Shown here: piece by piece, positions 9,644-53,668 of the stretch
Numbering within the stretch: the first letter of the stretch is position 1
Layout of the letters: each line of letters starts with the position of its first letter
Origin: a virus
IMG/VR virus record: IMGVR_UViG_3300026233_000017
DNA: 64,000 nucleotides
Direction: 5' to 3' (one strand)
Notes under the pieces: model-generated
The model's input: the letters and a program-made list of their open reading frames with translations, nothing else
What the model was told of the DNA's origin: nothing
The model's database searches: none
Translations under genes and position numbers: made by a program

Positions 9644-10078
9644 ATGCCGAAGTACACCGTACTGTCGCCCGTCAAGCATGACGGGAAGCGCCACAGCGTG
9701 GGCAGCCCCATCACGCTCAAGGCCGACGAGGGCGCGGCCCTGGTCGCGCTGGGCGTGCTGGAGGACCCAGCGATCGACGCAGCCCGTGCTGCAGCCGAGA
9801 AGGCCGAAGCCGCGCGCCTGGTGGCCGAGAAGGCTGCTGCGGAGCAGGCCGAAGCCGAGCGCCAGGCAGCCGAGAAGGCTGCTGCGGAGCAGGCCGAGGC
9901 CGAGCGCCAGGCTGCCGAGAAGGCTGCTGCGGAGCAGGCCGAAGCCGAGCGCCAGGCTGCCGAGAAGGCTGCTGCGGAGCAGGCCGAGGCCGAGCGCCAG
10001 GCTGCCGAGAAGGCTGCTGCGGAGAAGGCCGAAGCCGAACGCCTCGCTGACGACAAGGCCAAGGGCGGGAAGGCCTGA
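9644..10078 (+). CDS. Head-associated protein with EAK-rich helical repeats (lambda FI-like position)
   Basis: ATG at 9644; 'MPKYTVLSPVKHDGKRHSVG', then 15-aa repeats. Confidence 0.75.
   Translation: MPKYTVLSPVKHDGKRHSVGSPITLKADEGAALVALGVLEDPAIDAARAAAEKAEAARLVAEKAAAEQAEAERQAAEKAAAEQAEAERQAAEKAAAEQAEAERQAAEKAAAEQAEAERQAAEKAAAEKAEAERLADDKAKGGKA
9824..10040 (+). repeat. 45-bp coding tandem repeat, about 4.8 copies (AEKAAAEQAEAERQA)
   Basis: Units start at 9824, 9869, 9914, 9959, 10004. Confidence 0.95.
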
Positions 10079-10080
10079 CC

Positions 10081-10416
10081 ATGCTGGACCTCGACCGCGA
10101 CCTGCGCGAGGTGTTCTACGGCGACGACTTCGCCCTGACGTTCTCCATCGAGCGACAGGGCGCAGTCGTGGGCTCGGCCGCAGGGATTCTCGGCGTCATA
10201 GACGACGAGGCCCTGGATGGCCGGGTCTTCGCCGCAGAGAGGACGCTGCGGCTGCCCTCGATGCACGAACTGCTCGAGCGCGATGTGCTGATCATGCTGG
10301 CCGATGAGCCCACCATCGGCGTGCGGGTCGGCGACCGTTTTCGAGTACTGGCCGAGCCGAAGCGCGTCAACGATGGATCTGAGATGGAGGCGCTGCTGGG
10401 CAGCGTGCAGCCATGA
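10081..10416 (+). CDS. Head closure/head-tail joining protein (FII-like)
   Basis: 111 aa, position, beta-rich. Confidence 0.6.
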   Translation: MLDLDRDLREVFYGDDFALTFSIERQGAVVGSAAGILGVIDDEALDGRVFAAERTLRLPSMHELLERDVLIMLADEPTIGVRVGDRFRVLAEPKRVNDGSEMEALLGSVQP

Positions 10417-25913: not shown

Positions 25914-26708
25914 ATGGCGAACCCTATCGTCCCCTGGCTTGGCGGCAAGCGCCGTCTGGCCGATGTCATCGTGCCCCGTTTCCCCCCGCACAAGTGCTAC
26001 GTCGAGGTCTTTGCAGGAGGCGCGGCGCTCTATTTCATGCGCCCGCCGGCCGAGGTCGAAGTCATCAACGATATCAATGGCGAGCTGGTCAATCTGTACC
26101 GGATCGTGCAGAGGCACCTCGAAGAATTTGTGCGCCAGTTCAAGTGGGCGTTGTCCTCGCGCGAGGTCTTCAAATGGCTGCAGATCACACGGCCGGAAAC
26201 CCTGACCGACATCGAGCGCGCGGCGCGTTTCTACTACCTCCAGCACCAAGCCTTCGGCGGCAAGGTTTCCGGTCAGACGTGGGGCACGGCCACGACCGCG
26301 CCCGCCCCCACGGTGAATCTCCTACGGCTCGAAGAGGATCTGAGTGCGGCCCACATGCGGCTGCATGGTGCCTACATCGAGCGCCTTGATTGGCAAGACT
26401 GCATGAAGCGGTACGACCGGCCACACACGCTGTTTTATTTGGACCCCCCGTATTGGGAAACCGAGGGGTACGGCGTGCCTTTCCCCTGGGCGGAATACGA
26501 GGCGATGGCCGACCGCATGCGCAACCTGCAGGGCAAGGCAGTGCTGAGCATCAACGACCATCCGGCCATTCGGGAATGCTTCGCTGGCCTGCACGTCGAG
26601 GTCGTGCCGATCACGTACATCGTGGCCGGCGGCGGCAGCGGCGTGCAGCGCACCGAGCTGGTCTACAGCAGTTGGGATCGTGCTGCGGAGCCCGTCGGGC
26701 TGTTTTGA
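25914..26708 (+). CDS. DNA adenine methyltransferase (Dam/D12 class), orphan
   Basis: 'PWLGGK', 'EVFAGG', 'NDIN', catalytic 'DPPY'. Confidence 0.92.
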   Translation: MANPIVPWLGGKRRLADVIVPRFPPHKCYVEVFAGGAALYFMRPPAEVEVINDINGELVNLYRIVQRHLEEFVRQFKWALSSREVFKWLQITRPETLTDIERAARFYYLQHQAFGGKVSGQTWGTATTAPAPTVNLLRLEEDLSAAHMRLHGAYIERLDWQDCMKRYDRPHTLFYLDPPYWETEGYGVPFPWAEYEAMADRMRNLQGKAVLSINDHPAIRECFAGLHVEVVPITYIVAGGGSGVQRTELVYSSWDRAAEPVGLF

Positions 26709-27138: not shown

Positions 27139-27594
27139 TCAACGGGTCATGGGCATCTCGCGCCCCTGTTCGGCGTACCACCGCTCAGCGACGCTGGGTG
27201 TTTCGGAGCGGGGTGGCATGGTCTCTGGTAGCTTCGGCGAAAACCGAGCGGCGTCGAACTGTGCAAGGGGCGGCCCATCGACTGATGGACAGGGTCTGAT
27301 CAGCCACACCTGCTCATATTCAGCAATACCCGCATCGGTGCGGGCGCATACGTGGCCGCGCCATAGCATTGCATCTCCGAGGATGTCCAGAAGCACTGGC
27401 TCCCACAGGTGTGGACCCGGGACCATATGCGTGCTCCACTCAACCCACAGCGCCGCCTCTCGCATGCTGCGTCGGTTGTTGTTGGACCGCCCGTTCAAGT
27501 AAGTGATGCGCAGATCCCCCCGGACGGGAGCTGGCCAGTCTTTAGGCGCCAGACGGAGGCCAGCGCGACGGAGTTCGATGATTTCGCAGAACAC
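27139..27594 (-). CDS. Hypothetical protein (SOS operon gene 1), probably leaderless
   Basis: 151 aa; GTG abuts the SOS box, 6 nt downstream of a TATATT -10. Confidence 0.65.
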   Translation of the reverse strand: MFCEIIELRRAGLRLAPKDWPAPVRGDLRITYLNGRSNNNRRSMREAALWVEWSTHMVPGPHLWEPVLLDILGDAMLWRGHVCARTDAGIAEYEQVWLIRPCPSVDGPPLAQFDAARFSPKLPETMPPRSETPSVAERWYAEQGREMPMTR

Positions 27595-27609
27595 TGTTTG
27601 AATATACAG
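27594..27609. promoter_or_regulatory. LexA (SOS) box
   Basis: CTGTTTGAATATACAG fits CTGT-N8-ACAG; lies between divergent genes, one of them SRAP. Confidence 0.85.
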
Positions 27610-27676
27610 TGTTTTTTTGATGCTCGAAAGTTAGCATGTACTCCTGACAATCCCGGATGGTCATCAGGAGGTCATC

Positions 27677-28369
27677 ATCTGCAACCGATACAACACCCCA
27701 CGCGAGACCGAGATCGAGCGCGTTTTTCGGATCGGCCGACAGGCGCCGAACAGGTGGTGGAAGCCACACGTTACGCCGCTGGCGTTGGGGCCGTATATCA
27801 AGCCCGGTGGCGAGATTGAGGTGGGGCAGTGGGGGATGATCCCGCGCAGCTCTCCCACGCGCCGGCCGACTACCCGCGACGGGACGCCCATGTCAACGAA
27901 CAACGCCCGGCGCGAGACCATCGCGAAGTCTTGGACGTACGCGCCTGCATGGCGAGCCGGCCAGCGCTGTCTGATCCCCGCCGAGTCGTGGATCGAGCCG
28001 TATTGGGGCCTCGGGTCGCGCAATGTGTGGTGGTCGTTCCAGCGCGCGGACGGGCAGCCGGCGGCCCTGGCCGGGCTCTATAGCGAATGGACGGACCCGG
28101 AGACCGGGGAGCTTGTCCCGAACTACACCATGATCACGCAGCCTGCAGACGGCGACCCAGTGCTCGCGCTGATGCACCGGCCCGGCAAGGAAAAGCGCGG
28201 CGTCGTGATGCTTGAGCAGCAGGACTGGGATGCCTGGCTGCACGGAACGGCCGCCCAGGCTGATGCGCTGATCAGGCTGCCGCCGCTCGGCGTGCTTCGG
28301 AGCGGAGCGGAAAAGCCCGAGGATGAGAATCTGCTGCCCTCAGACCAACTAGCGTTACTTAAACAATAA
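27677..28369 (+). CDS. SOS response-associated peptidase (SRAP/HMCES/YedK family), ATC start
   Basis: (I)CNRYN N-terminus, 'NNARRET', 'RCLIPAESWIEP', 'ALAGLY', 'MH...KRGVVML'; AGGAGG 5 nt before ATC; no in-frame ATG upstream. Confidence 0.8.
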   Translation: MCNRYNTPRETEIERVFRIGRQAPNRWWKPHVTPLALGPYIKPGGEIEVGQWGMIPRSSPTRRPTTRDGTPMSTNNARRETIAKSWTYAPAWRAGQRCLIPAESWIEPYWGLGSRNVWWSFQRADGQPAALAGLYSEWTDPETGELVPNYTMITQPADGDPVLALMHRPGKEKRGVVMLEQQDWDAWLHGTAAQADALIRLPPLGVLRSGAEKPEDENLLPSDQLALLKQ

Positions 28370-28408
28370 CTAGACGCGGTTCTTTCTCGATTTTGTGAGG
28401 TCCTCTTG

Positions 28409-28510
28409 TAAGTTATTGATGTAAAACGATGAGAATGGATTGCAAATCCGGTTAGACCAGTTCGACTCTGGTTCGCGCCTCCAAGAATATTAAAGAAAAT
28501 CAAATACTTA
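28409..28510. promoter_or_regulatory. Inverted 12-mers flanking att core (putative integrase/accessory binding sites)
   Basis: TAAGTTATTGAT (28409-28420) and reverse-strand TAAGTATTTGAT (28499-28510), 10/12 match. Confidence 0.5.
28437..28483 (+). other. attP core = 3' half of tRNA-Cys(GCA)
   Basis: GGATTGCAAATCC anticodon arm, T-arm GTTCGAC, acceptor 3' GCGCCTCCA; 5' half absent. Confidence 0.88.
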
Positions 28511-28511
28511 T

Positions 28512-28533
28512 AAGGCCCTTCGGGGCCTTTTTT
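28512..28533 (+). terminator. Terminator supplied downstream of restored tRNA
   Basis: AAGGCCC-TTCG-GGGCCTT then TTTT. Confidence 0.85.
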
Positions 28534-28659
28534 CATTTCCGGCACGATTCAATATAGGCTCAATCGATCTCAAACCGCGCAGAAACTGCGGTCGAACCAC
28601 GCCTAATTTGCATAGTTTGTCGATGAGGTGAGTACACTCCGGCCGAACTTCACAGGGAG

Positions 28660-29874
28660 GTGAGTTTGTCGAGTGTGCGCAAAACGCCCCGAGGGCGATA
28701 TGAGCTGACGATTCGCAGCAAGCTGCTGCCGAAGCCGGTCTATATGACGTTCGACGACCAGGCCGAGGCTGAGCAGTACGGCCAGCAGGTCGACCAGCTG
28801 CTCGCTGCCGGGGTGGTGCCGGCGGGCCTGGTGCAGCAGACGGCTTCAGCCCCGAAGCCCACTGAGCGGCTGCGATTCGTGCTGGTGGCTTGGATCAACA
28901 CAGGCCAGCCGGCGGCCACCGACATCCCGGTCCTCGAGCTGCTGGTCGATGAGGTGGGCAAGGTGCTGATCGCCGACCTCACCTACAAATGGGCCGAGGC
29001 CTGGGTGCGCAGCCTCAAGCTGGAGCGCAATTTCTCGCCGGGCACCATCCGCAAGCGCGTGGGCTCTCTGTCACGCTGCCTGGATTGGTGGCTGCGGCAG
29101 CATCCCGACGCCATGGTGGGCAATCCGCTGCGTCTGTTGCCAAAGGGTGCGGCCACATACACCCCGAAGGACCGGGCCGACATCGAGGCGCTCAACGCTG
29201 CGGCCGGGGACCAGGCCAGGCCCAAGGTTGCCAAGGAAGATGTCCAGCGCGAGCGGCGGCTGCTGCCTGGCGAGCTGGAGCGCATCGAACGGGTGCTGGC
29301 CGGCGAGCGGCGGCCGGACCGCGAGCGCACCATCAAGCTGGACGATGCGCCAGCCCTGCGCGCAATGTTCCTGCTGATCCTGTACACCGGACTGCGGCTG
29401 CGCGAGGCCTATACGCTTCGGCGTGGGCAGTTCGGCCTGGCGACGCGGGTCATCCGCGCCAAGGCTAGCAAGCAGTGGCACGGAAAGGTCAAGTACCGCG
29501 AGGTGCCCATTCGGCCCGAGCTGCTCGGGGTGCTGGAGGCCTACCTGCAGGCCCTGCCGGATGATGGCGAGCAGCAGCTGGTGTTTCCGTGGTGGACGGG
29601 GGAAGAGGATGCGCAGGAGCTGGCCAGGGTCTCGTCGCGGCTGTCCAATCGGTTCGCCAGCCTGTTCAGCTATGCGCAGTGCGACGGTCTGACGGAGCAC
29701 GACCTGCGGCATGAGGCGACGTGCCTATGGTTCGAGATGCGTACCAAGACAGGGGACTGGATGTTCCGCGAGGCAGAGATTCACCGCATCATGGGCTGGG
29801 CGCCTGGCAGCAAGATGGCTCAGCGGTACGCCAGCTTCCGTGCGGAAGATCTGGCGGCCCGGATGTGGTCTTAG
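28660..29874 (+). CDS. int: Tyrosine integrase
   Basis: 'YTGLRLRE', 'HDLRHE', 'MGW', 'QRY'; SD GGAGG; adjacent to attP. Confidence 0.93.
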   Translation: MSLSSVRKTPRGRYELTIRSKLLPKPVYMTFDDQAEAEQYGQQVDQLLAAGVVPAGLVQQTASAPKPTERLRFVLVAWINTGQPAATDIPVLELLVDEVGKVLIADLTYKWAEAWVRSLKLERNFSPGTIRKRVGSLSRCLDWWLRQHPDAMVGNPLRLLPKGAATYTPKDRADIEALNAAAGDQARPKVAKEDVQRERRLLPGELERIERVLAGERRPDRERTIKLDDAPALRAMFLLILYTGLRLREAYTLRRGQFGLATRVIRAKASKQWHGKVKYREVPIRPELLGVLEAYLQALPDDGEQQLVFPWWTGEEDAQELARVSSRLSNRFASLFSYAQCDGLTEHDLRHEATCLWFEMRTKTGDWMFREAEIHRIMGWAPGSKMAQRYASFRAEDLAARMWS

Positions 29875-41732: not shown

Positions 41733-43362
41733 GCACACCGACGACATCAACGCGGGCGGGGCCTCGTTTCCGCCACTGCCGCCACCGCATGCGACCGAAG
41801 AGTCGCATGCTTCGTCGGCTCTCGGCGCGCCAGCGCCGCTGGATAACTCTGTCGTGCACGTCGACTTTCAGGCGGGCGTGCGCGTGCCGGGCGAGGCGCA
41901 GGCCGAGCCATCTTCTTCGCGCCCCCGCCCCCCCAAAGTAAGCGCAGCTGCGCGCGACTCTGGGGATGGGGGTGGCAAGGCCGATCCGCCGGTGCAGGGC
42001 AAGAAAAAAGAGAAGACGGTCGATTGGGGGAAGTTCAACCACCTGGCCGAGAACTTCGTGCTGATCTACGGTACCGACACCGTCTGGGATGGTGCTGAGC
42101 GGTTGATCATGAAGATCGCCAACATGGGCCACGCCCATGGCGCCGACATGGTCCGCATGTGGAAGGCCAGCGAGAAGCGCAAGACGGTGCGGCTGGAGGA
42201 CGTGGTGTTTGACCCGACCCTCAAGGTCGATCCGGCCAACAGCGTGAATCTCTACGACGGTATGGCGATGGTGCCAAAAGAGGGTGACGTCCAGCCCATG
42301 CTTGAGCTGGTCTCGTTTCTGACAAGCCGCGCCACTTCTGATGAAGCCGATACGGGCGACATCATGCACTGGCTGTTGTGCTGGTTGGCCTATCCACTCC
42401 AGCACCCTGGCGCCAAGCTGCGCACGGCCGTGGTCATGCATGGCGATGAAGGTGCCGGCAAGAACTTCCTGTTTGACATCATGGTCGCGCTGTACGGCAA
42501 GTACGGCGCGCTGGTTGGCCAGGATGAACTGGAGGACAAGCACAACGATTGGCGCAGCTGCAAGCTGTTCGTGGTGGGCGACGAAGTGTCCAGCCGGGCC
42601 GAGCTGGTCCACAACAAGAACCGGCTCAAGGCGTTGATCACATCGCCCACGGTGCAGATCAACCCAAAGCACCTGACCCGGCGCGAAGAGAAGAACCACA
42701 TGAACATCGTGTTTCTCTCGAACGAGCTGCAGCCGCTGGCCCTGGACAACTCGGACCGGCGCTACCTGGTCGTCTACACGCCCAGGGCGAAGGACTTCGA
42801 GTATTACAAGGCGCTCGGCGAATGGCGAGACAACGGCGGTATCGAGGCCTTCTACCACTACCTGCTGAACTACCCGCTGGGCGACTTCCATGCGTATGCC
42901 CCGGCCCCCATGACTGACGCCAAGTCGGCACTGATTGCCATCAACCGCAAGAGCCCTGAGCTGTTCTGGTCGGAATGGCAGGCGGGTGAGCTGGATCTGC
43001 CGTATCACTCCTGCGCCGTCACCCAGGCTTATGCCGCCTACCTGAAGTGGTGCCAGCGGACTGGAGACCGCTACCCCTTCCCCCAGAAGGCGTTCACGCC
43101 CACCGTGATTCGGTTTGCGGAGGGGCAGGGCCAGCCAATGCGCTCGAAGCCCATGAACGTTGTGCGGCCTGGTCAAGCCAAGAAGACCGAGCGCATGTTG
43201 TTGGTGACGGAGCCGATTCTGGGCGAGGGCGAGCAGCGCATGACTGAAGGCGATTGGGCCACCTCGGCCGTTCGTGAGTTTGCGGATGCGCTGCGCAAGT
43301 ACGCGGGGTATGGCAGCGGCTCCCCGGCCCCTCAAGGGCAAGAGCCAGAGGTAGGTCAGTGA
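41725..43362 (+). CDS. SF3/D5-like (DUF5906) replicative helicase
   Basis: Walker A GDEGAGKN, Walker B VVGDE, motif C FLSN, DRRY. Confidence 0.88.
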   Translation: MAEHTDDINAGGASFPPLPPPHATEESHASSALGAPAPLDNSVVHVDFQAGVRVPGEAQAEPSSSRPRPPKVSAAARDSGDGGGKADPPVQGKKKEKTVDWGKFNHLAENFVLIYGTDTVWDGAERLIMKIANMGHAHGADMVRMWKASEKRKTVRLEDVVFDPTLKVDPANSVNLYDGMAMVPKEGDVQPMLELVSFLTSRATSDEADTGDIMHWLLCWLAYPLQHPGAKLRTAVVMHGDEGAGKNFLFDIMVALYGKYGALVGQDELEDKHNDWRSCKLFVVGDEVSSRAELVHNKNRLKALITSPTVQINPKHLTRREEKNHMNIVFLSNELQPLALDNSDRRYLVVYTPRAKDFEYYKALGEWRDNGGIEAFYHYLLNYPLGDFHAYAPAPMTDAKSALIAINRKSPELFWSEWQAGELDLPYHSCAVTQAYAAYLKWCQRTGDRYPFPQKAFTPTVIRFAEGQGQPMRSKPMNVVRPGQAKKTERMLLVTEPILGEGEQRMTEGDWATSAVREFADALRKYAGYGSGSPAPQGQEPEVGQ

Positions 43363-43602
43363 TGCGGGCGAGTTACTCCATTACGAAGGTGCGTAACGCT
43401 GGAATCCAGCACTGGCGCGGGTTGTTACGTGATTACGCAGTTACCGATTGCGCACACATGCATGCATGTGTGGGCGAGTGCGGGCGCATGCATGGGTGTG
43501 CGTGCATGTGTGTGCACGACATGCGTAACCACGTAAATGCGTAACTCGCTAGGCGTGGCGCGGGTTTCGTGTTTACGCGCGCTCGTAACCGCGTAATCAC
43601 TT
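43359..43602. other. Putative origin (copy 2)
   Basis: Repeat of 107-350. Confidence 0.55.
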
Positions 43603-52895: not shown

Positions 52896-53330
52896 ATGCC
52901 GAAGTACACCGTACTGTCGCCCGTCAAGCATGACGGGAAGCGCCACAGCGTGGGCAGCCCCATCACGCTCAAGGCCGACGAGGGCGCGGCCCTGGTCGCG
53001 CTGGGCGTGCTGGAGGACCCAGCGATCGACGCAGCCCGTGCTGCAGCCGAGAAGGCCGAAGCCGCGCGCCTGGTGGCCGAGAAGGCTGCTGCGGAGCAGG
53101 CCGAAGCCGAGCGCCAGGCAGCCGAGAAGGCTGCTGCGGAGCAGGCCGAGGCCGAGCGCCAGGCTGCCGAGAAGGCTGCTGCGGAGCAGGCCGAAGCCGA
53201 GCGCCAGGCTGCCGAGAAGGCTGCTGCGGAGCAGGCCGAGGCCGAGCGCCAGGCTGCCGAGAAGGCTGCTGCGGAGAAGGCCGAAGCCGAACGCCTCGCT
53301 GACGACAAGGCCAAGGGCGGGAAGGCCTGA
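52896..53330 (+). CDS. EAK-repeat protein (copy 2)
   Basis: Repeat of 9644-10078, same repeat count. Confidence 0.75.
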   Translation: MPKYTVLSPVKHDGKRHSVGSPITLKADEGAALVALGVLEDPAIDAARAAAEKAEAARLVAEKAAAEQAEAERQAAEKAAAEQAEAERQAAEKAAAEQAEAERQAAEKAAAEQAEAERQAAEKAAAEKAEAERLADDKAKGGKA

Positions 53331-53332
53331 CC

Positions 53333-53668
53333 ATGCTGGACCTCGACCGCGACCTGCGCGAGGTGTTCTACGGCGACGACTTCGCCCTGACGTTCTCCAT
53401 CGAGCGACAGGGCGCAGTCGTGGGCTCGGCCGCAGGGATTCTCGGCGTCATAGACGACGAGGCCCTGGATGGCCGGGTCTTCGCCGCAGAGAGGACGCTG
53501 CGGCTGCCCTCGATGCACGAACTGCTCGAGCGCGATGTGCTGATCATGCTGGCCGATGAGCCCACCATCGGCGTGCGGGTCGGCGACCGTTTTCGAGTAC
53601 TGGCCGAGCCGAAGCGCGTCAACGATGGATCTGAGATGGAGGCGCTGCTGGGCAGCGTGCAGCCATGA
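53333..53668 (+). CDS. Head closure protein (copy 2)
   Basis: Repeat of 10081-10416. Confidence 0.6.
   Translation: MLDLDRDLREVFYGDDFALTFSIERQGAVVGSAAGILGVIDDEALDGRVFAAERTLRLPSMHELLERDVLIMLADEPTIGVRVGDRFRVLAEPKRVNDGSEMEALLGSVQP

Follow-up and report, generated by a model that had tools for sequence, protein, structure and literature searches.

A conserved ATC codon behind a Shine-Dalgarno sequence is the probable translation start of a phage SRAP gene

Introduction

ATC is listed as an alternative start codon in NCBI translation table 11; to our knowledge, very few AUC starts are conserved in bacteria and phages, and most of the annotated ones are doubtful. The closest described systems are two genes of Escherichia coli, infC (IF3) and pcnB, both of which start at AUU behind a Shine-Dalgarno (SD) sequence, the near-cognate AUH codon being read by the initiator tRNA (bioRxiv 10.1101/063800). 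Both are characterized by low output and by IF3 discrimination (bioRxiv 10.1101/063800; PMC9723500), IF3 being known to discriminate against near-cognate starts (PMC9723500) and also against leaderless mRNAs (PMC9031893). In reporters in E. coli, as distinct from the Comamonadaceae host considered here, AUC initiates with methionine at about 1 to 2% (range, 0.02 to 3%) of the level of AUG (bioRxiv 10.1101/063800).

SRAP proteins such as E. coli YedK and human HMCES form a thiazolidine DNA-protein crosslink to abasic sites in single-stranded DNA (PMC9436759). For this crosslink, Cys2 must become the N-terminal residue through removal of Met1, and Met1 is gone from YedK purified from E. coli (PMC9436759). 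Here we describe the start region of a SRAP gene found in 64,000 nucleotides of viral DNA (IMG/VR record IMGVR_UViG_3300026233_000017), the whole of which is referred to below as the window. We consider it likely (probability, roughly 0.8) that this phage gene is translated from AUC behind an SD sequence, with low output and probable control by LexA.

Results

An SRAP gene with ATC in the place of ATG

The gene and the elements at its start are the following.

27677 to 28369, plus strand: SRAP (YedK/HMCES-type) gene, 230 codons plus TAA (Pfam PF02586, E = 1.8e-24)
27666 to 27671, plus strand: SD sequence AGGAGG, 5 nt ahead of ATC
27677 to 27679, plus strand: predicted near-cognate initiation codon ATC; ATG at the same position in homologs, ATC in 13 distinct alleles
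27680 to 27682, plus strand: TGC, codon of the catalytic Cys2, in a column invariant in an alignment with E. coli YedK

In a Pfam profile search, the product matched PF02586 at 86.9 bits, against a cutoff of 27.1; it also matched phrog_1599 (E = 2e-36), with residue 2 of the protein aligned to position 2 of the profile. Its best solved relative was 1zn6, a phage-related SRAP structure (E = 8e-29), to which it is nearer than to YedK. YedK and HMCES share with the window protein the fold family PF02586, the equivalents of Cys2, Asn75, and Glu105, and an association with the SOS response, and in an alignment that included YedK, C2, N75, and E105 (YedK numbering) were invariant columns. YedK differs in that it starts at ATG and begins MCGRF, and the window protein, which is 28% identical to it, has an insertion between His and the next Arg. 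The His lies in a conserved MHRP motif; the subfamily insertion shifts the alignment there, and equivalence to His160 (YedK numbering) is by motif only. The gene product is thus predicted, from these sequence matches, to be an abasic-site DNA-crosslinking protein of the YedK/HMCES type. Three SRAP homologs from Delftia lacustris and D. acidovorans (P0011, P0014, and P0018; 55 to 57% identical to the window protein) begin MGNRY, with Gly replacing the catalytic Cys2 in 232-residue proteins that are otherwise intact, and these variants may be crosslink-dead.

An earlier reading of the sequence, referred to here as the original prediction, had placed the start of the gene at this ATC in the series AGGAGG, TCATC, ATC, TGC, AAC, CGA, and TAC, and the letters read exactly so, with TCATC (27672 to 27676) as the spacer between SD and ATC. 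It had also described the frame as closed upstream by TAG with no ATG, which was borne out and can be extended to the other canonical starts: the frame is open from TAG at 27632 to 27634, 45 nt upstream of ATC, to TAA at 28367 to 28369, and none of the 14 codons that separate TAG from ATC is ATG, GTG, or TTG. The earliest canonical in-frame start is TTG at 27785, which is codon 37 and opens an ORF of 194 amino acids. Finally, ATC does sit at the Met1 position of the protein, as had been claimed. Homologous SRAP proteins begin MCNRY, and at the DNA level ATG occupies the position of the window ATC; in the window, too, Cys is residue 2 right after the initiator, with ATC in place of ATG. Since SRAP chemistry needs Cys2 as the N-terminal residue, the position of the start codon is fixed, and judged by the sequence the ATC is almost certainly the translation start of the gene, behind a strong SD.

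The ATC codon is kept in intact alleles under purifying selection

It is retention in relatives, rather than the local sequence, that lifts the ATC above chance. Scans of collections of genomes, viruses, and metagenomes, together with a pattern search at the DNA level, yielded 13 distinct ATC alleles with the arrangement GGAGG, 5 nt, ATC, and TGY, which came from a D. acidovorans isolate (MMO-42, locus L009), two MAGs (L010 and L011), IMG/VR contigs, and metagenome contigs. The pattern search was open to ATA, ATC, or ATT and found ATC alone. The alleles span two leader types, described below, and two SRAP subfamilies (232/230 and 220 amino acids) that are 43% identical. The original prediction had envisaged homologs with ATC or ATT as well as the case in which all close homologs show ATG; ATT did not appear, relatives other than the 13 carry ATG, GTG, or TTG, and close homologs are clearly not all of the ATG kind.

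As fallbacks, the original prediction had named a sequencing error and a point-mutation pseudogene. We give next to no credence to a sequencing or assembly error as the source of the C at 27679, because the same ATC and context are found in L024 and L027, two independent records 99% identical to the window, and in more distant records (L009 to L011, L014, L025, L031, and L076 to L085), among them the D. acidovorans isolate. A start-loss pseudogene, silenced by an ATG-to-ATC mutation, is in keeping with the facts that the non-ATC relatives all have ATG, GTG, or TTG at this position and that ATG and ATC differ by a single base. It is nevertheless highly improbable. All 13 alleles are intact, full-length ORFs of 220 to 232 codons; their frames are closed by a stop either 30 or 45 nt ahead of ATC, and the stretch from that stop to ATC has no canonical start. 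Pairwise dN/dS among the ATC alleles had a median of 0.12 at a dS of 0.5 to 1.2, compared with 0.13 for ATG alleles, and codons 2 to 36, which lie ahead of any canonical start, gave a dN/dS of 0.15 at a dS of 0.75. Untranslated sequence at a dS of 0.5 to 1.2 would have gathered stops and frameshifts, and a pseudogene would also leave unexplained the perfect SD kept at a fixed 5-nt spacing. Because diverged, intact ATC alleles are under purifying selection, we rejected both fallbacks and take the ATC to be a conserved near-cognate start: the selected coding sequence is preceded by no canonical start downstream of the upstream in-frame stop, and an SD at functional distance has been kept together with the ATC.

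The selection on codons 2 to 36 bears equally on the possibility that the product is N-terminally truncated, starting at TTG 27785 or a later ATG, with the upstream part untranslated. Gene finders would choose that TTG. A dN/dS of 0.15 ahead of it speaks against this choice, as do the lack of an SD ahead of TTG 27785 and the fact that the truncated form would be without Cys2, which is needed for the crosslink; a truncated SRAP product is unlikely on sequence grounds and, as an account of the locus, scarcely credible.

A further possibility is that translation begins at a near-cognate codon farther upstream, such as CTG 27644 or ATC 27674, and that the extra residues are removed by the autopeptidase activity proposed for SRAP proteins. 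N-terminal tags were cut off just before Cys in crystallized SRAP proteins (Aravind et al. 2013, PMC3765255), and the SRAP frame is indeed open for 14 codons upstream of ATC. However, conservation is lacking at these upstream codons, L011 having CCT in place of CTG 27644 and other loci GTC or GCT in place of ATC 27674, and one leader type (type D, below) has just 9 open codons upstream of its ATC. At every ATC locus that we read, GGAGG is followed by a 5-nt spacer whose letters vary (TCATC, TCGTC, CCGCT, or CTGCT), as does the codon preceding ATC (ATC, GTC, or GCT). The fixed spacing in spite of the varied spacer and preceding codon singles out the ATC next to Cys, and the spacing suits no other codon, the 2 nt from the SD to 27674 being too short. 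Moreover, YedK active-site mutants also lose Met1, which points to an aminopeptidase rather than autoproteolysis (PMC9436759). Taken together, these points make an upstream start improbable, and initiation at the ATC beside Cys2 remains the preferred reading.

The other SRAP genes of the host family provided a comparison. Among 57 such genes from 301 Comamonadaceae genomes with an N terminus that could be placed, the start was ATG in 52, GTG in 4, and TTG in 1, and in none was it ATC. ATC-start alleles were likewise missing from the matches of the SRAP protein search. Gene callers miss or shorten ATC-start SRAP genes, with loss of the catalytic Cys. Four proteins considered as truncated calls of ATC genes were not accepted as such: P0008 runs off its contig at the C terminus, P0041 and P0081 come from short contigs and are fragments that are short at the N terminus, and the true start of P0115 is GTG followed by TGC. 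The nearest virus record (G001) had no match to the SRAP region, and the phage collection had no DNA match. A search of the available literature found no paper on an ATC start or a leaderless mRNA in SRAP genes.

Four leader types

Comparison of the sequences upstream of the SRAP genes revealed four layouts, with distances to the LexA box counted from the start codon.

Type A: AAGTTAGCAT, 6 nt, ATG, without SD; LexA box at -51/-52
Type B: ATG overlapping the stop codon of the upstream gene, behind GAGGTGG; no LexA box
Type C (the window): AAGTTAGCAT, about 39 nt with AGGAGG, 5 nt, ATC; LexA box at -83/-84 in all relatives of this type
Type D: unrelated upstream sequence, CGGAGG, 5 nt, ATC; no LexA box

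Two elements of the window leader are needed for the comparison of types A and C.

27632 to 27637, plus strand: -10-like hexamer TAGCAT, likely promoter element; the TAG with which it begins is the in-frame stop closing the SRAP frame
27642 to 27674 (approximate), plus strand: leader insert of 33 nt relative to leaderless type A, carrying the SD and most of an inverted repeat

AAGTTAGCAT is invariant across the type A and type C loci. A sigma-70 consensus scan gave no match at the SRAP promoter, and our promoter proposal is based instead on the position of the motif TAnnnT in the 57 Comamonadaceae SRAP genes. The distance from the end of this motif to the start is exactly 6 nt in 24 of them, 7 nt in 4, and 8 nt in 2, and the motif was found at most once at any other offset, while an SD-like 4-mer is present in only 8. 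In this survey (loci L047 to L075 and L086 to L124), about half of the sampled Comamonadaceae SRAP genes therefore look like leaderless mRNAs whose transcripts start at the A of ATG. By the same geometry, TAGCAT would serve as the promoter element in the window, with the transcript starting near 27644, about 7 nt after the hexamer.

The window gene and the leaderless genes of Comamonadaceae and of type A prophages thus have in common the gene family and the -10 element AAGTTAGCAT, and type A genes share in addition the geometry of LexA box and promoter. They differ in that the leaderless genes have ATG 6 nt after the -10 element and no SD, whereas the window gene starts at ATC behind a 33-nt leader that carries an SD. 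In an alignment, type A reads AAGTTAGCATCCAC, TT, ATG, TGC, and the window has an extra 33-nt stretch followed by TC, ATC, TGC. The window form accordingly looks like a leaderless layout that gained a 33-nt SD-bearing leader, with ATG changed to ATC, the direction being that suggested by the comparison.

Leader and coding sequence do not travel strictly together. A member of the second subfamily (L079, 43% identical to the window protein) likewise has the type C leader and ATC, and L041, which is 90% identical to L079, has the leaderless ATG layout of type A. ATC alleles are scattered on the gene tree, with 5 changes on the best tree, of which at least 2 are forced. We do not claim repeated origins of ATC from this tree, in view of recombination of the 5' module and of GGTCATCA, which types C and D have in common just before the SD region. 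The presence of GGTCATCA in both ATC leader types makes possible a single origin of ATC that was then spread by recombination, and such exchange of the 5' module appears to account better for the scatter.

Two other reading frames in the leader were considered and dismissed. A mini-ORF (ATG-TAC-TCC-TGA, 27636 to 27647) is not accepted as a leader peptide: it has no SD, its stop is lost in L011, and transcription probably begins downstream of it. An out-of-frame ATG at 27657, which opens an ORF of 60 amino acids and would require a frameshift, is missing in L011 and in type D. A search of Rfam with 27550 to 28660 returned nothing relevant, the one sub-threshold sRNA match lying at the terminator.

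A LexA box at a conserved position

Upstream of the SRAP promoter lies a divergently oriented gene, with a LexA box between the two.

27594 to 27609: LexA (SOS) box CTGTTTGAATATACAG, between divergent genes
27139 to 27594, minus strand: divergent ORF of 151 amino acids, whose GTG start overlaps the LexA box

CTGTTTGAATATACAG is the sole CTGT-N8-ACAG in the window, where 0.72 would be expected by chance. It is therefore not the pattern alone but its conserved position that supports the box: it occurs in the promoter region at orthologous loci of types A and C, and it adjoins the predicted -35 region of the SRAP promoter. We conclude from this that SRAP transcription is probably under LexA control via 27594 to 27609.

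The divergent ORF, which matched no Pfam or PHROG profile, complicates the assignment. Its start on the minus strand reads TATATT, 6 nt, GTG, with TATATT at the center of the LexA box, and the ORF resembles a LexA-controlled leaderless gene. It could be the main or only target of the box, and LexA may control the SRAP gene, the divergent ORF, or both. In L041 (G005:C33), the place of the LexA box upstream of SRAP is taken by a variant palindrome, ACTGGTTATTTAACCAGT (CTGG-N8-CCAG), which may be a decayed or altered operator.

An inverted repeat at the Shine-Dalgarno sequence

The original prediction had the SD occluded by a hairpin. Folding gave the following arms.

27641 to 27647, plus strand: left (anti-SD) arm of the inverted repeat, CTCCTGA
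27664 to 27670, plus strand: right arm TCAGGAG, overlapping the SD

The repeat is real, with a core stem (CTCCTGA/TCAGGAG) of 7 bp in the window and 8 bp in L009 and L010, but occlusion found no support. The leader folds at -17.1 kcal/mol, with a z score of only -1.0, and 28 of 200 shuffled sequences folded as well. In L011 the left arm is CTCCCTA, which loses 3 pairs and reduces the stem to 4 bp with no compensation, and the type D leader does not contain the stem. The features expected of an attenuator, namely, a stem stabler than chance and compensatory changes, were thus not found. Moreover, if transcription began near 27644, the RNA would lack most of the left arm, and RNA from 27644 was less structured than its shuffles (z = +1.4). 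Occlusion of the SD by a hairpin is therefore doubtful. Of the triple damping that had been proposed for the gene, the LexA and weak start codon layers have evidence in their favor, and the RNA structure layer is uncertain.

The gene is the last before attP in a temperate phage genome

The window represents a temperate phage genome that is circular or circularly permuted; it consists of a 43,252-bp sequence wrapped around, with positions 1 to 300 repeated at 43253 to 43552. Downstream of the SRAP gene we found the following.

28437 to 28488, plus strand: attP core, duplicating 52 nt from the 3' part of the host tRNA-Cys(GCA) gene, with 98% identity to two Delftia genomes
28512 to 28529, plus strand: terminator-like hairpin followed by a T run (sequence scan)
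28660 to 29874, plus strand: tyrosine integrase (Pfam PF00589)

In both Delftia genomes, the 52-nt match overlaps tRNA-Cys, and the window contains no whole tRNA. The copy thereby names the host genus, Delftia, and the integration site. SRAP is the last gene before attP, the tRNA-Cys copy lying between it and the integrase gene, and in relatives the SRAP gene is at the prophage end, beside host genes or the integrase. A gene for a D12-class N6-adenine DNA methyltransferase (PF02086) is found at 25914 to 26708, some 1 kb ahead of the SRAP gene. Elsewhere, a coding region rich in Ala/Glu/Lys-type repeats contains a tandem array (9698 to 10165, equivalent to 52950 to 53417) whose period is 45 nt.

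Discussion

The ATC of this phage SRAP gene appears to be a genuine, conserved AUC start and a well-anchored addition to the known near-cognate starts of bacteria. The case is unusually clean and testable because the chemistry of the enzyme requires Cys as residue 2, which fixes the start position independently of gene finders. On the reading that we prefer, initiator tRNA would insert fMet at AUC, 5 nt behind a perfect SD, and methionine aminopeptidase, which takes off Met before Cys, would then strip it to expose Cys2 as the N-terminal nucleophile. The pairing of SD and ATC would keep SRAP output low but nonzero in spite of the strong SD, and LexA bound at 27594 to 27609 would repress transcription.

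Compared with infC and pcnB, the window has AUC instead of AUU, and the gene is a phage accessory DNA repair gene. Its start was set by the catalytic Cys at residue 2 rather than by experiment. In infC the near-cognate start is part of the feedback by which IF3 regulates its own synthesis, and no such loop is known for the window SRAP gene.

Since IF3 discriminates against near-cognate and leaderless starts alike, the leaderless ATG and SD-ATC forms of SRAP may share one regime. One could imagine that the SRAP genes of Comamonadaceae and their phages have been kept in an IF3-sensitive, low-efficiency mode of initiation, mostly as leaderless AUG mRNAs, and that, when a prophage lineage gained an SD leader, selection swapped AUG for AUC; this idea is speculative and, we think, unlikely to be right. 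If it were true, output of this suicide DNA crosslinker would be low and would rise under stress, at low IF3 activity or with an excess of 70S ribosomes. The four expression layouts of one phage accessory gene (leaderless ATG, translationally coupled ATG, and two SD-plus-ATC leaders) form a natural experiment in how the dosage of a self-trapping DNA-crosslinking protein is controlled.

Near-cognate starts of infC itself are expected from IF3 autoregulation, as in other bacteria. Read by eye, the infC genes of Delftia and a relative (L126 to L128) seem to start at ATA behind an SD-like stretch, and that of a Paucimonas MAG (L125) seems to start at ATT behind an SD-like stretch.
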